A DNA stretch of 64,000 nucleotides. Origin: Escherichia coli (GTDB taxonomy: Bacteria > Pseudomonadota > Gammaproteobacteria > Enterobacterales > Enterobacteriaceae). The position numbers were made by a program. Positions 20,340-29,300 of this stretch are shown piece by piece (within the stretch, counting starts at the first letter, position 1; each line of letters opens with the position of its first letter). The stretch lies in NCBI RefSeq assembly GCF_045037415.1, contig NZ_CP173438.1; one strand, given 5' to 3'.

Positions 20340-23300
20340 TTACCACGGGTTTCCCATGCCATTTCCAGTGCTTTCATGGTAAGCCTGCTGTCCGGCGAGA
20401 ACGACATGGCCCAGCCCACTGGTTTTCTTGCGAACAGGTCGAGAACAACGGCGAGGTACGCCCAGCGCTTACCCGTCCAGATATAGGTCACATCACCGCA
20501 CCACACCTGATTTGGCTCGGTCACGGCGAACTGCCGTTCAAGGTAGTTAGGGATAGCAACATGTTCATGACCACCACGTTTATACCGGTAAGTCGGCTGC
20601 TGACAGCTGACCAGCCCCAGCTCTTTCATGAGTCTGCCAGCAAGCCAGCGCCCCATCTGGTAGCCTCTCTGGGTTGCCATTGTGGCGATGCTTCTTGCTC
20701 CGGCCGAACCGTGGCTGATGCCATGTAGCTCAAGTACCTGACTGCGTAATACAGCCCGTCTGCCGTCTGGTTTTTCAGGACGGTTTTTCCTGAGGTAGCC
20801 TGAGTTTAACGGACACTCCTTCCTGAAATAGAATGGCATCAGAAGGAGCTAATAATGAGCAGAAAAACCCAACGTTACTCTAAAAAGTTCAAAGCCGAAG
20901 CTGTCAGAACGGTTCTTGAAAATCAACTTTCGATCAGTGAAGGCGCTTCCCGATTATCTCTTCCTGAAGGCACTTTAGGACAATGGGTTACCGCCGCCAG
21001 AAAAGGGCTCGGTACTCCTGGTTCCCGCACGGTGGCTGAACTGGAATCTGAAATTCTGCAACTGCGTAAGGCGTTAAATGAAGCTCGCCTTGAGCGAGAT
21101 ATATTAAAAAAAGCAACTGTAGATTTTGCACAGGAGTCGCTGAAAAATACGCGTTAATCGAACAATGGCGACAACAATTTCCCATTGAAGCGATGTGTCA
21201 GGTATTTGGTGTATCCAGGAGCGGTTATTACAACTGGGTACAGCATGAACCCTCAGACAGAAAACAAAGTGATGAGCGGCTAAAACTGGAGATTAAGGTG
21301 GCACATATCCGCACTCGCGAAACATATGGAACCCGGCGGCTCCAGACGGAGCTGGCAGAGAATGGCATCATCGTTGGTCGTGACCGACTGGCACGTCTTC
21401 GTAAGGAGCTAAGGCTACGCTGTAAGCAGAAACGCAAGTTCAGAGCGACTACGAACTCGAACCACAATCTGCCAGTTGCGCCAAATCTGCTGAACCAGAC
21501 GTTCGCTCCTACAGCACCAAATCAGGTCTGGGTGGCGGACCTGACGTATGTTGCCACACAGGAGGGATGGTTGTACCTCGCTGGCATCAAAGATGTTTAT
21601 ACGTGCGAAATTGTCGGCTACGCCATGGGAGAGCGCATGACAAAAGAGCTGACAGGTAAAGCCCTGTTTATGGCGCTCAGGAGCCAGCGCCCACCTGCCG
21701 GGCTAATCCACCACTCTGATCGAGGTTCACAGTACTGCGCATACGATTACCGGGTCATACAGGAGCAGTTTGGTCTGAAAACATCAATGTCGCGTAAAGG
21801 TAACTGTTACGACAACGCTCCGATGGAAAGCTTCTGGGGAACGCTGAAAAATGAGAGCCTGAGCCACTATCGTTTTAATAACCGGGATGAAGCCATCTCA
21901 GTAATACGGGAATACATTGAGATTTTCTACAATCGTCAGCGTCGTCACTCTCGTCTGGGGAATATCTCCCCGGCAGCCTTCAGGGAAAAATATCATCAGA
22001 TGGCTGCTTAAAAAAAAGAACAAATGGTAGTGTCCGCTATTGCCAGTACACCTCAACATTCCACCATGCATTCCGATTAACGCCGCATAGCCAGTTGAAC
22101 TTTGCTACTTTGTGAGAGGTAGTACCTTCTATCCAGTGCGAATTTAATTAATGGAATAAATGATTATGAGTGAAAATGATACAATCCCAAAGAAGTCTAC
22201 AAGTCAGATTAACAAAGCGGTATTCTTTACATCTGCTTTGCTAATTTTCCTTCTTGTCGCCTTTGCCGCCGTATTCCCGGATGTCGCCGACAAAAATTTT
22301 AAACTACTTCAGCAACAAATCTTCACGAATGCCAGCTGGTTCTACATCCTTGCTGTGGCCCTGATTTTACTGAGTGTCACGTTCCTTGGACTCTCACGCT
22401 ACGGTGATATCAAGCTGGGCCCGGACCATGCGCAGCCTGATTTCAGCTACCACTCCTGGTTTGCGATGCTTTTTTCGGCAGGGATGGGGATCGGCCTGAT
22501 GTTCTTTGGCGTTGCCGAACCTGTAATGCATTATCTTTCGCCACCCGTTGGCACTCCAGAAACCGTTGCGGCAGCTAAGGAAGCAATGCGTCTGACCTTT
22601 TTCCACTGGGGACTGCACGCATGGGCAATTTATGCCATTGTGGCGCTGATTCTGGCGTTCTTCAGTTACCGTCACGGTCTGCCTTTAACTCTGCGCTCCG
22701 CACTCTATCCCATTATTGGCGATCGCATATACGGACCTGTAGGACATGCGGTTGATATTTTCGCTGTTATAGGCACGGTCTTTGGCGTTGCGACATCACT
22801 GGGTTACGGTGTTTTGCAGGTGAATGCCGGTTTGAACCATCTTTTCGGGGTGCCCATCAATGAAACGGTGCAGGTAATTCTGATCGTGGTCATCACGGGG
22901 TTAGCGACGATTTCAGTGGTGTCCGGTCTGGATAAGGGAATACGTATCCTGTCTGAACTCAATCTGGGTCTGGCTTTGTTGCTCCTGGCGCTGGTCCTGT
23001 GTCTGGGACCAACCGTGCTTCTGCTGAAGTCATTTGTGGAAAATACGGGCGGTTATCTTTCGGAACTGGTGAGTAAAACGTTCAACCTTTACGCGTATGA
23101 GCCCAAGTCGAGCAACTGGCTGGGGGGCTGGACATTACTGTACTGGGGATGGTGGCTTTCATGGTCGCCGTTTGTGGGGATGTTCATCGCACGGGTCTCC
23201 CGCGGGCGAACCATTCGCGAGTTTGTCACCGGCGTGCTGTTTGTTCCCGCGGGTTTTACGCTAATGTGGATGACGGTGTTTGGTAACAGCGCGATCTATC

Positions 23301-26300: not shown

Positions 26301-29300
26301 TGCGTTCCAAACTATATTGTTCTACTGAGCCAGTGTACGACTTCTGGAGCTATTTCAAAACCTCGGTACGCTATCAGTCTTCTCAGGAAGCAACAACTGG
26401 CCAGTAAAAGGGGCCGCAGCCCCTAAAACTTATTATACTAAGCCTGAGCTCGGCATCCATCTAATTAGCTATATTGAATGACTGCACGACCGCGAATTCC
26501 GCCACTCAGAAGTTTTTCAGCCACAGTGATGGCGTCACTGAGCGGATAAACGGTAGTGAGACTATCCATTCTGGACTCTGGCAAATACTATACCGCCTGT
26601 TGCCAGATTGCTGCTCTTTTCTCTTTCGCGAACATGACGCTATCAATCCCTTTCAGCGTGACACCACGCAGAATAAACGGAGCCATATTGCCCATCAAAT
26701 CCATCCCCTGAGCCATGCCGCAGGCTGCAACAATACTGCCATATCGGACCCCGGCGCAGGCATTTCTCCAGTAACAGGGGGTTGTATTGTATTGTATTTT
26801 ATTGTGCCGGTTCAGGTGTGCGTTTCCCGGCGCGTCTGCACCGGCTTAACCAAATTCAACAGGGATAAAATAGTGCAAATAACCGAAGTATTACTTGCAG
26901 TAATCGGGGGAAGCATCCGGGGTTTTATTCAACAGGCTGTAGATCACTGACTGCGTCTGTTGGCCGTCCACTTCACGCGTCATTCGACCAGAGTAAATAT
27001 TGATGATTACTAGATTCGTGTATTTTATCAGGCATTTTACTTGCGAATAAATCCCCTTGCTATCCAGCGAAACCACACAGGTAGCTATTACCATATGTGG
27101 TAATACACTAGTTACAGGAAAAATATGCAAGTTCCGCAATACGTTGTGTGTTGCTCCTTAGCCAGGATCTTTTCTTCCATGCGAGATATGACAACAATTT
27201 TGAGGAAGGATGTTCGTAACTGGTAGAGTTACTACAACAAGCATGGGAGGCTCTGACTCTGACAGACATTGTACTGTGGAATGTTGTTACAGGTTGGGGC
27301 GGCAACCGTGCCAGGAAACCATGAGCCGTTCACGGCATTAAAGGCCACACTTCAGTCGTTTACATTCCCTATGGTGGCAGGCATCTTCCATTAAGGCGTC
27401 AGAGCGTTACCAACGTTATGTTGTCATGGCTCATCTTTCATAGTCGATGCTTATCTGGTGGCTGAAGCTAGCCGCAGATAAAGAGTGTGAAGTTGATACC
27501 ATGGAGTGGAGTGACGTGCAGGCAGGAGATTCGCTCTATGCAGGGTTGTGAGATGAATTCAAACCGGCTGGCAGCGCCAGTGATATTCGAAGATTCGTCC
27601 GGTTGTTACCCAGTATGCATTAAAAACCCATACATTATGGACAATATAACGGCTTCTACAACAAGGAAGTGCCTGTTTACCATCCGGGTGTAATGACTCA
27701 CCTTTGTGGGCTTTTGCCCGTCGCGCTCTTAACGTTGAAGACATTCTCTGCCTGCCGATTCAGGACTGCGACAAAAGCCATATCTGGCTACTGGTCAAGG
27801 ATGACCAGCGTCTGGAGTAGGTGATAAGCCAAATAGATAAGCTGGAATATGTGGTGAAAGTGCAACGTAATCAGTCCAACCCGACGATGTTTAACAAGAT
27901 TGTGGTGTTTTTTCAGTAAGTCATTCGTCTTCTGAATCAGGTGTAATGATCTTTACAGAACCATTCTGGCAGTGCGTAACATAATCTGCCGGTAACGGAC
28001 GATCGCTAATCAGAACGTCAAATGCAGAGATCGGTGCGAGGCTGGCAGAGGCCACTTCATCGAACAACGCGTGGCGGGCGAGCAAAATTTTCCGTAGTCC
28101 ACGGTTCATCGCTTTACGCTTAGTGGCAAGATCTTCAGGGTTAAACCAGCTGACGCCAAAGTGATTATGCACACCGCTGGCGGAAATAAATATTTTTCGC
28201 GGATTGAGAGAGTCTAATGGCGAAGAGTTACTGGCATCGTAAAAAGCATCACTTCTGGCACGATACGTACCACCACAAAGTATTGCTGTTACATTAGGCT
28301 TTTCATTCAACGCAACAAAGACGCGATGTGAGTAACAGATGCCGGTGAAGGTGATTGCATCCGGAATCATGCTTATAACGAGTGGTATCTCCTGGCCATT
28401 ATCAAAGAAGATCAGATCATTTTCATTAACCATTCCGGCAGCCAGAATTGCAATAGGTAAGTCATCACGATGATTTTTTGGAACGTCATGGATTACTGGC
28501 ATGGATGGCGCGGGTTTATTCACCATTACAATATAGCCACCCAGTAGGGTCAGTGGCAGAGGTTCATCTTCCTGATGGAGATCGCGACGAATAGTCATTA
28601 CAGAAACTTCCAGCATTCGCGCTGCGTCTTTCAAATGGATTCTGTCGGTTTTCTTAAGCAGTTCCATCAAACGTCGGATACGCTCTTTTTGCTTCGTTTC
28701 CATCAACTCTCTCTCCGTAAGAATGTTATAAAAATAACATTTTGGCGTTAGTAAACATTGTTTTCATTACCATACTATACGACCGCCCCTTTGAAATGAA
28801 AAGGGTATAGGCTGCTGAGTTTTGGGCACTAATCTTGTTAGGTTGCTTATGATTAGATAGTGTTGGCCTGAGTGATGAGACTGGAAGTCTATTAAATAAA
28901 CATCGGGTTGATGTGCTAATCGCGATCTCAGTCACAAATGATGCAAAAGTAACATGCTAATGTTATTTAAATACCATTGTTATGCGAAAGTTTATAAGAG
29001 GTAGTGAAATGGACATTGCAGTTATTGGTTCCAATATGGTGGATCTCATTACTTACACTAATCAGATGCCTAAAGAAGGAGAAACTCTGGAAGCACCTGC
29101 CTTCAAAATCGGATGTGGTGGGAAAGGTGCTAATCAAGCGGTGGCGGCGGCTAAATTGAATTCAAAAGTCCTGATGCTGACTAAAGTAGGTGATGATATT
29201 TTTGCGGATAATACTATTCGTAATCTTGAATCATGGGGAATTAATACCACTTATGTTGAGAAGGTCCCCTGTACCAGCAGTGGTGTTGCACCGATCTTTG

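Follow-up and report, generated by a model that had tools for sequence, protein, structure and literature searches.

Downstream of the fecABCDE operon of Escherichia coli, in a 64,000-nucleotide stretch of chromosomal DNA (assembly GCF_045037415.1, contig NZ_CP173438.1; hereafter the window), three neighboring genes of the + strand encode a BCCT transporter, a DUF2254 membrane protein and a TetR regulator. The original prediction regarded this trio as a single module for the uptake or sensing of a quaternary-amine-type compound. We now consider it probable that the region consists of two unrelated modules lying side by side, a mobile osmotolerance pair composed of betU and the DUF2254 gene, and an orphan AcuR regulator situated beside a dead acuI gene. 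The calling of open reading frames (ORFs) and Pfam searches did recover the three + strand ORFs (BCCT, DUF2254, TetR) as they had been drawn. A fourth element had been overlooked, the C-terminal 99 codons of acuI on the - strand, which carry an in-frame stop.

The division between the two modules was revealed by nucleotide comparisons. Homology-block limits established with blastn fall between 25591 and 25646, and the alignment upstream of acuR diverges left of about position 25648. The Klebsiella plasmid L002 shares 22057-25580 with the window at 97.2% identity (blastn) and has no TetR gene at this place. Similarly, an integrative and conjugative element (ICE) of E. coli M1 (NZ_CP010180, locus L094, 4007-7345) shares 22057-25591 at 94.3% and has no acuR/TetR gene. 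The segment to the right matches the acuR-acuI locus of Raoultella, which aligns with window positions 25646-26764 over 1123 bp at 90.9% identity (blastn). The trio does not hold as one uptake or sensing module because the pair travels without the TetR gene on about 1,500 plasmids, in transposon Tn6062 and in an ICE, and because the TetR segment is a separate block. The elements discussed here, some of them bounded by insertion sequences (ISs), are the following.

ends at 19107: fecABCDE; the betU region lies downstream
about 20004-20839, - strand: ISEc52 fragment, left of IS600
20855-22011, + strand: IS600 copy (IS3 family), left edge of the accessory block (RefSeq annotation of strain 4/1-1, ORFs)
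22057-25591, + strand: mobile betU-DUF2254 segment, the extent of DNA common to plasmids and ICEs (blastn)
22160-24163, + strand: betU, BCCT transporter of 667 aa, or of 665 aa from the RefSeq start at ATG 22166
24226-25503, + strand: DUF2254 gene (PF10011), 425 aa from the RefSeq start; longest ORF 24211-25503
25592-25645: junction between modules, about 55 bp, found neither in plasmid and ICE copies of the pair nor in the Raoultella acuR locus
25646-26764: acuR-ΔacuI segment, with 91% identity to the acuR-acuI locus of Raoultella planticola, ending abruptly inside acuI
25751-26407, + strand: acuR (TetR), from ATG 25751, 218 aa, NCBIfam AcuR equivalog
26465-26764, - strand: ΔacuI pseudogene, with codons 229-327 at 26468-26764 and the native stop at 26465-26467 (tblastn, translation)

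Both forms of BetU (665 and 667 aa) are present in public databases. The DUF2254 gene starts 62 nt 3' of betU on the same strand. We evaluated hairpins after betU (24172-24190) and after the DUF2254 gene (about 25541-25577) as terminators and rejected them, since they are no more stable than shuffled sequence (stability z of -0.3 and -1.7, respectively).

The betU-DUF2254 pair is a horizontally mobile osmotolerance cassette. Matches to the pair were found on 1,536 plasmids (1,264 of Klebsiella and 1,208 conjugative), with 1,471 covering at least 80% of both genes. Among 5,426 complete E. coli genomes, 1,964 contained a match and 1,378 contained one with at least 80% coverage (25-36%). The island-borne character assigned to these genes by the original prediction was borne out by an IS600 copy and an ISEc52 fragment directly upstream, and by the presence of the pair in only part of E. 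coli, at varied sites and on plasmids. The allele of E. coli M1 adjoins trbJ and trbL, a third vehicle besides IS composites and plasmids.

The closest described system is Tn6062, a composite transposon of IncHI1 PST6 plasmids in which Holt et al. 2011 (PMC3139670) reported 'two putative transporters', SPAP0105 and SPAP0106. In that study a 3,405-bp fragment containing the two genes was amplified by polymerase chain reaction and cloned into pACYC184, and S. Typhi carrying it could grow in 0.8 M NaCl (PMC3139670). Both primers of Holt et al. match the S. Typhi IncHI-type plasmid NZ_CP029937 (locus L092) exactly, at positions 2998 and 6392, and the layout of this locus, IS1-BCCT-DUF2254-IS1, is that of Tn6062. 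When compared with window positions 22095-25497, the plasmid copy is 98.1% identical at the DNA level and 99.5% (BetU) and 96.5% (DUF2254) identical at the protein level. SPAP0105 is the DUF2254 gene of Tn6062. The gene in the window is the same as the betU of uropathogenic E. coli and Tn6062 (99.5% to the Tn6062 BetU), being IS-flanked, patchy in E. coli and followed 3' by the same DUF2254 gene. The window copy differs from Tn6062 in being chromosomal and located by fec and IS600, rather than flanked by IS1 on a plasmid, and in having gained acuR-ΔacuI on its right.

DUF2254 beside ion and osmolyte transporters

The second protein of the pair matches the Pfam family DUF2254 (PF10011 / IPR018723) over its full length, with an E value of 5e-93 and 312.3 bits against a gathering threshold of 28.8 (profile positions 3-366 of 368). 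The AlphaFold2 model of the full-length protein has a predicted local distance difference test (pLDDT) score of 77.7, with values of 50-70 in the transmembrane (TM) part and above 90 for residues 170-415; the C-terminal domain modeled separately reached 91.7. Sequence and model together suggest four N-terminal TM helices, and both the N-terminus and a C-terminal domain of about 260 residues with α/β-plus-helical composition are predicted to be cytoplasmic because the N-terminus is rich in K and R. Invariant motifs RSFxQDPRF and EIAxRALSPAxNDPGTAI are located in this C-terminal domain.

The original prediction considered the protein to be without known function, and literature, sequence and fold searches concurred. 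A structure search with the model of the C-terminal domain matched only designed helical repeats and solenoids, a profile search of PDB sequences was empty, leaving the protein with no solved sequence or structural relative, and PADLOC defense models gave no match. Literature searches for DUF2254, PF10011, IPR018723 and SPAP0105 returned only an old automated annotation guess, 'guanosine phosphorylase', which we disregarded, and a survey of knot topologies that says of the family only that it is a membrane family, some members being predicted to be knotted and others not (PMC11184937).

The genomic surroundings of the family were more informative. Using the family profile we retrieved 80 loci from other genomes and scanned the ORFs adjacent to the DUF2254 gene with Pfam. 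Six transporter families accounted for 38 of the 148 directly adjacent ORFs (NhaA 10, BCCT 9, CLC 7, CPA 6, SulP 4 and TrkH 2). The same families accounted for 8 of the 605 ORFs located two or more genes away, an internal control that yields a Fisher p of about 1e-21, a rough value given crude ORF calling and genomes that are phylogenetically non-independent. Neighbors belonging to these families were present in 27 of 77 DUF2254 loci, and genes for ion or osmolyte transporters were about 20 times commoner beside DUF2254 than among other nearby ORFs. In the Pfam scans these neighbors appeared as NhaA, Na_H_Exchanger, CLC, SulP/STAS and TrkH matches, and single K-channel and MgtE genes were present as well. 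We did not find this neighborhood pattern in the literature searched.

BCCT genes related to betU adjoin the DUF2254 gene in 9 of the 80 loci. A neighbor-joining tree places the BCCT-linked DUF2254 genes in at least four clades, always co-directional with the BCCT gene. The betU gene precedes DUF2254 in the mobile clade of enterobacteria and in rhizobia, and follows it in Pantoea and Mixta. Separation in these pairs is mostly 58-136 nt. Such an arrangement, which recurs in both gene orders, would be expected if BetU, or whichever transporter is adjacent, depended on DUF2254 as an accessory or regulatory subunit for its activity or osmotic activation; the retention of the pair as a unit on about 1,500 plasmids and its cloning as a unit in the sole functional test point in the same direction. 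Nevertheless, we regard an obligate partnership as unlikely. BetU orthologues stand alone in all four genera sampled, and E. coli B, which has the same fecE-ISEc52-IS600-betU site, keeps betU while its DUF2254 gene is interrupted by IS911. Furthermore, the neighboring families (NhaA, CLC, CPA, SulP, TrkH, BCCT) are structurally unrelated and often lie on the opposite strand, which is easier to explain by a common physiological theme than by physical association with one particular partner.

Two further observations concern DUF2254 alleles. In E. coli BLR(DE3), of the laboratory B lineage (NZ_CP020368, locus L095, 4007-7582), betU is intact and the DUF2254 gene is cut by IS911 after about codon 114, a natural 'betU only' state. 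The E. coli protein P0050 (524 aa) joins a TrkH domain to a DUF2254 part that shares 97% identity with the window protein across 65% of its length; it is probably a fusion made by an IS or a deletion. TrkH genes also adjoin DUF2254 genes in Pseudomonas.

We infer from these patterns that DUF2254 acts in membrane ion or osmotic homeostasis, in a channel-like or regulatory capacity, and that it is co-selected with BetU without being its obligate subunit. A broader proposal would make DUF2254 a widespread class of ion and osmolyte homeostasis proteins, either a new channel or a membrane-bound regulator whose fold lacks any solved relative, repeatedly recruited beside unrelated transporters and adding materially to the osmotolerance conferred by Tn6062 and related plasmids. 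This is a tentative idea, which we hold to be possible and on balance doubtful.

AcuR and the acuI stump

The regulator encoded to the right of the pair contains TetR_N (2e-12) and TetR_C_13 (1.2e-23) domains and passes the NCBIfam AcuR equivalog NF051457, although marginally (265.8 bits against a cut-off of 247, positions 2-202 of 204). Its best PDB match is 3bru (7e-48, 42% identity). The longest ORF begins at TTG 25691, and ATG 25751 is the start used in RefSeq and in all orthologues. As the original prediction had recognized, the protein is not BetI-like: identity to BetI is 24% over 67 residues, confined to the helix-turn-helix region, and the scores with BetI models are far below the cut-offs (29.4 against 201.3 bits, and 26.6 against 118).

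Orthologues of acuR (55-94% identity) were examined in six acuR-acuI sources, namely Raoultella, Enterobacter, Pantoea, a Proteus scaffold, Vibrio mangrovi and E. coli 027_SK3. Each is accompanied by a convergent gene of 323-329 aa with ADH_N and ADH_zinc_N domains, in surroundings that are otherwise unrelated. This full-length partner scores above the NCBIfam AcuI equivalog cut-off (486 and 479 against 440 bits) and is 51% identical to YhdH. What is left of acuI in the window corresponds to residues 229-327 only, 90-92% identical to the AcuI proteins of Raoultella, Enterobacter and Pantoea (tblastn), and it is broken by an in-frame stop at 26588-26590 (translation), so that no full-length reductase of about 325 aa is encoded. 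The first 228 codons are missing, along with the promoter and the putative AcuR operator. E. coli 027_SK3, in which acuI is intact, loses its collinearity with the window beyond position 26764. A complete acuI was present in only 4 of the 1,276 E. coli genomes that carry the acuR segment. In strain TO6 the gene is split by IS100, and truncated acuR alleles are common in E. coli.

In R. sphaeroides, AcuR acts on an operator of the form TAATAGAC-n6-GTCTATTA, mutations of which result in constitutive expression (PMC3017554). In 7 loci, representing four enterobacterial genera, the 17-mer TTAGACGATCGGTCAAT occurs a single time, at a distance of 58-70 nt upstream of acuI, and it is absent from all other positions in the 101 loci fetched. 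It occupies the - strand at 7758-7774 (locus L083), 7750-7766 (L085), 7762-7778 (L087) and 4260-4276 (L100). At the equivalent place upstream of acuI, V. mangrovi (L101) has TAGACGATCGGTCTA, and the fragment upstream of acuI in E. coli 027_SK3 contains a site of the TATACGATCGGTCAAT type. The core of TTAGACGATCGGTCAAT, with its TAGAC-GTCTA half-sites, matches the R. sphaeroides operator, and palindromes of the TTAGACGATCGGTCAAT type are likely to represent the operator of AcuR.

Sites of this kind were not recovered at the places where a regulator of the pair would require them. There is no TAGAC-N5-GTCWA site in the 64-kb window. A relaxed version of the enteric pattern gave 3 matches in the window at 3 mismatches, against 1.2 expected, and none was in promoter position. 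With the R. sphaeroides pattern, the regions preceding acuR, betU and the DUF2254 gene yielded nothing above chance level, the matches having 6-9 mismatches. No AcuR-type target was found at native K-12 yhdH. An inverted repeat, CGCAAAA-N10-TTTTGCG, is located upstream of acuR at 25703-25726. This palindrome is kept in Enterobacter with changed arms (GGCAAA/TTTGCC), not kept in Pantoea and Proteus, and absent in Vibrio; we rejected it as an autoregulatory operator because it is not kept across genera. For the same reason, the conserved block AAATCACTTATTCTTTT within it (25707-25723) is more likely to be a promoter.

These features suggest how the system might operate where it is complete. In intact loci AcuR would repress the convergent acuI gene by way of the TAGAC-N5-GTC(A/T)A palindrome, which precedes acuI by about 60 nt. 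In the presence of acrylate it would leave the operator, acuI would be expressed, and toxic acrylyl-CoA would be reduced. In the window, with acuI codons 1-228, promoter and operator gone, AcuR would be left without a target. IS activity would have placed both accessory modules together downstream of the fec operon.

Comparison with the acuR-acuI-dddL genes of R. sphaeroides (Sullivan et al. 2011, PMC3017554) reveals both likeness and difference. The window TetR protein passes the AcuR model and the TAGAC/GTCTA half-sites are shared. However, the R. sphaeroides genes form an operon, whereas in Enterobacterales and Vibrio acuR and acuI are convergent, the operator is upstream of acuI and not of acuR, and dddL is lacking. 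In addition, the Enterobacterales and Vibrio acuR gene has a Shine-Dalgarno sequence and a leader, unlike that of R. sphaeroides. The partner of acuR passes the AcuI equivalog, in keeping with E. coli YhdH, to which it is 51% identical, and with Ruegeria AcuI (Todd et al. 2012, PMC3338564). In the window, acuI is reduced to a stump of 99 codons.

Could AcuR nonetheless control the pair? A single regulon, in which the TetR protein would respond to a ligand of the quaternary-amine type and govern betU and DUF2254 as one module, is the reading that the original prediction had favored. The genes are adjacent and co-directional, 951 E. coli genomes contain all three, there is a collinear block of four genes, and TetR regulators often lie beside transporter genes. 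We consider this improbable. The pair moves and works in the absence of the regulator (in Tn6062, on about 1,500 plasmids and in an ICE), homology blocks end between it and acuR, and orthologues of the regulator have acuI as their partner in six genera and in no case a BCCT or DUF2254 gene. Moreover, no AcuR-type operator precedes betU or DUF2254, and AAATCACTTATTCTTTT, upstream of acuR, keeps no palindrome across genera. The proposed role as regulator of the transporter gives way to an assignment as AcuR, by model and by partner gene, with no AcuR-type operator in the window. The decay of acuI while betU-DUF2254 remains intact also argues against a functional link specific to E. coli. We infer that AcuR is an orphan regulator without detectable target and that it does not control betU-DUF2254.

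More improbable still is an island devoted to dimethylsulfoniopropionate (DMSP) and acrylate, in which BetU would bring in DMSP or some similar sulfonium or acrylyl compound, AcuI would detoxify the acrylate produced from it and AcuR would regulate, the four genes being one unit now or in the past. Some precedent exists, in that the marine BCCT protein DddT imports DMSP and AcuR and AcuI handle acrylate, and an intact four-gene block is present in 4 E. coli genomes. BetU is nevertheless only distantly related to DddT (1e-67, whereas its best PDB relative gives 1e-194), the block has no DMSP lyase gene, the association was seen in E. coli only and has a clear mosaic junction, and acuI has decayed in all but 4 of 1,276 carriers, whereas betU-DUF2254 is intact.

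We also note the company that convergent acuR-acuI genes keep elsewhere. In Enterobacter (L085, 6001-7692) they are found among prophage genes (lambda O/P, DinI), and in the Proteus scaffold (L100, 2501-4190) between tail-fiber genes and an integrase. The acuR-acuI genes may have spread as phage cargo.

Identity and substrate of BetU

The transporter matches the Pfam family BCCT (PF02028) over the entire profile (E = 5.9e-198, residues 21-506, profile positions 1-485 of 485), and its alignment with BetT displays the tryptophan-rich TM8 segment WTLLYWGWWLSWSPFVG. Its identity with K-12 BetT amounts to 42% along the full length, C-terminal cytoplasmic domain included, and its score exceeds the cut-off of the NCBIfam BetT model NF007399 (749.7 against 695 bits), which is a subfamily model and not an equivalog. 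The protein falls below the cut-offs of all curated equivalogs: 591 against 650 bits for Betaine_BCCT NF047988, 259 against 541 for CaiT, and 238 against 647 for PRK09950 (YeaV-type). The original prediction described a BetT-like BCCT transporter encoded without betIBA, and this stands, the protein being a long BCCT of the BetT type that lies outside any bet operon; tblastn revealed no homologue of K-12 BetA, BetB or BetI in the 64-kb window, and K-12 BetT matched only betU, at 42%.

A glycine motif in TM3 separates the transporter from BetT. BetU has AGMGIGLMF, identical to BetP, and BetT has AGIGIDLMF. The aspartate at this position in TM3 is reported by Perez et al. 2011 to be the determinant of choline/H+ transport. 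The structure of BetP G153D (3P03) contains bound choline. In sequence comparisons BetU is closest among solved BCCT proteins to PDB entry 8YBQ (1e-194), for which we found no publication; the E values are 1e-97 for BetP and 1e-67 for DddT. BetU resembles the Na+/glycine-betaine symporter BetP of Corynebacterium glutamicum (PDB 2WIT) in its BCCT core and identical TM3 motif, both being betaine importers. It differs from BetP in having a long C-terminal domain of the BetT type and no BetP N-terminal extension, and its similarity to BetP is much below that to BetT-type proteins. With BetT it shares the BCCT fold, a length of about 670 aa, a homologous C-terminal domain and the subfamily match. 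Unlike BetT, it is not linked to betIBA, it has Gly in place of Asp in AGxGI[G/D], and its reported substrate is betaine and not choline.

Holt et al. name the Tn6062 gene betU, citing Ly 2004 for the transport of glycine betaine and proline betaine (PMC3139670). The substrate that the original prediction regarded as unknown has therefore been given in the literature as glycine betaine and proline betaine, and the two-gene fragment confers osmotolerance. With regard to distribution, Ly et al. 2004 (J Bacteriol 186:296) reportedly found the gene in about one third of E. coli isolates, flanked by insertion sequences, a share compatible with the 25-36% of complete genomes given above. On this indirect identification the transporter is BetU, published as an importer of glycine betaine and proline betaine that takes up both compounds at high external osmolality. 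The TM3 glycine identical to that of BetP, and the lack of the Asp of BetT, suggest that uptake is coupled to Na+ and directed at betaine rather than choline.

The proposal that the transporter is a BetT orthologue, a choline/H+ symporter left behind after betIBA was lost, a possibility that the original prediction itself had raised, draws on the NCBIfam subfamily match, the BetT-like length and C-terminal domain and the database name, but we find it scarcely credible given 42% identity to K-12 BetT with Gly and not Asp in TM3, no remnants of bet genes in the window, a location that is IS-flanked or on plasmids and not the bet locus, and a literature that assigns betaine uptake. Note that 'choline BCCT transporter BetT' (NF007399) is the RefSeq name on most of the plasmid matches listed, and annotation pipelines thereby attach it to betU on more than a thousand clinical plasmids. 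This label, applied to betU genes, is probably a systematic misnaming because both the TM3 motif and the literature point to betaine.

A number of observations weigh against one or another part of our interpretation. The identity of BetU is indirect: it rests on the attribution by Holt et al., and databases name the protein 'choline BCCT transporter BetT' in line with its passing the NCBI BetT subfamily cut-off. With respect to DUF2254, the neighborhood statistic is rough, many of the transporter neighbors are divergent or convergent and not operonic, and fold searches gave no functional clue. Orthologues of betU (79-89% identity) have neither a DUF2254 neighbor nor a remnant of one in K. aerogenes, Serratia liquefaciens, Xenorhabdus nematophila and Morganella, and the published salt phenotype may come from BetU alone. 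Finally, acuR adjoins about 69% of complete E. coli pairs (951 against 1,378 genomes), the betU-DUF2254-acuR-acuI block is intact in 4 genomes, and co-selection or cross-regulation within E. coli would be conceivable, if improbable. We maintain that two unrelated modules have come to lie side by side.

Surroundings and significance

The window region is 100% identical in many sequenced genomes of the ST131 type and in strain 4/1-1, and its genes are labeled in RefSeq as BCCT family transporter, DUF2254 domain-containing protein, AcuR and alcohol dehydrogenase (36 aa). Right of the acuI break, positions 26765-27920 form a decayed non-coding stretch in which RefSeq annotates an acetolactate-synthase small-subunit (ACT-domain) pseudogene at 27693-27919. 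The last 240 bp or so of this stretch are about 91% identical to a gene called ilvN in most E. coli genomes. It is followed at 27921-31273 by a cluster for sugar utilization that encodes a regulator of the DeoR type (- strand), a sugar kinase of the PfkB family and a permease resembling FucP. The window has an uninterrupted kinase gene (315 aa), whereas ISEc52 divides that of strain 4/1-1, which is identical in other respects.

Much of what the region contains has been described before: BetU, Tn6062 and AcuR/AcuI are known, and the exact sequence is annotated in hundreds of genomes. What our analysis adds is the assignment of the TetR gene to a decayed acuR-acuI pair, the probable misnaming of betU genes as BetT, and the enrichment of transporter genes beside DUF2254. 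The reading of the region is thereby corrected, and the window contains no new module for sensing quaternary amines. The pair that it does contain is carried by the plasmid type of the global multidrug-resistant H58 clone of S. Typhi and by a large share of Klebsiella plasmids. The enrichment of transporters beside DUF2254 makes the function of a clinically widespread gene directly testable. Should the tentative view of DUF2254 as a class of homeostasis proteins be true, part of the osmotolerance now credited to BetU alone would be due to DUF2254, on about 1,500 clinical plasmids.

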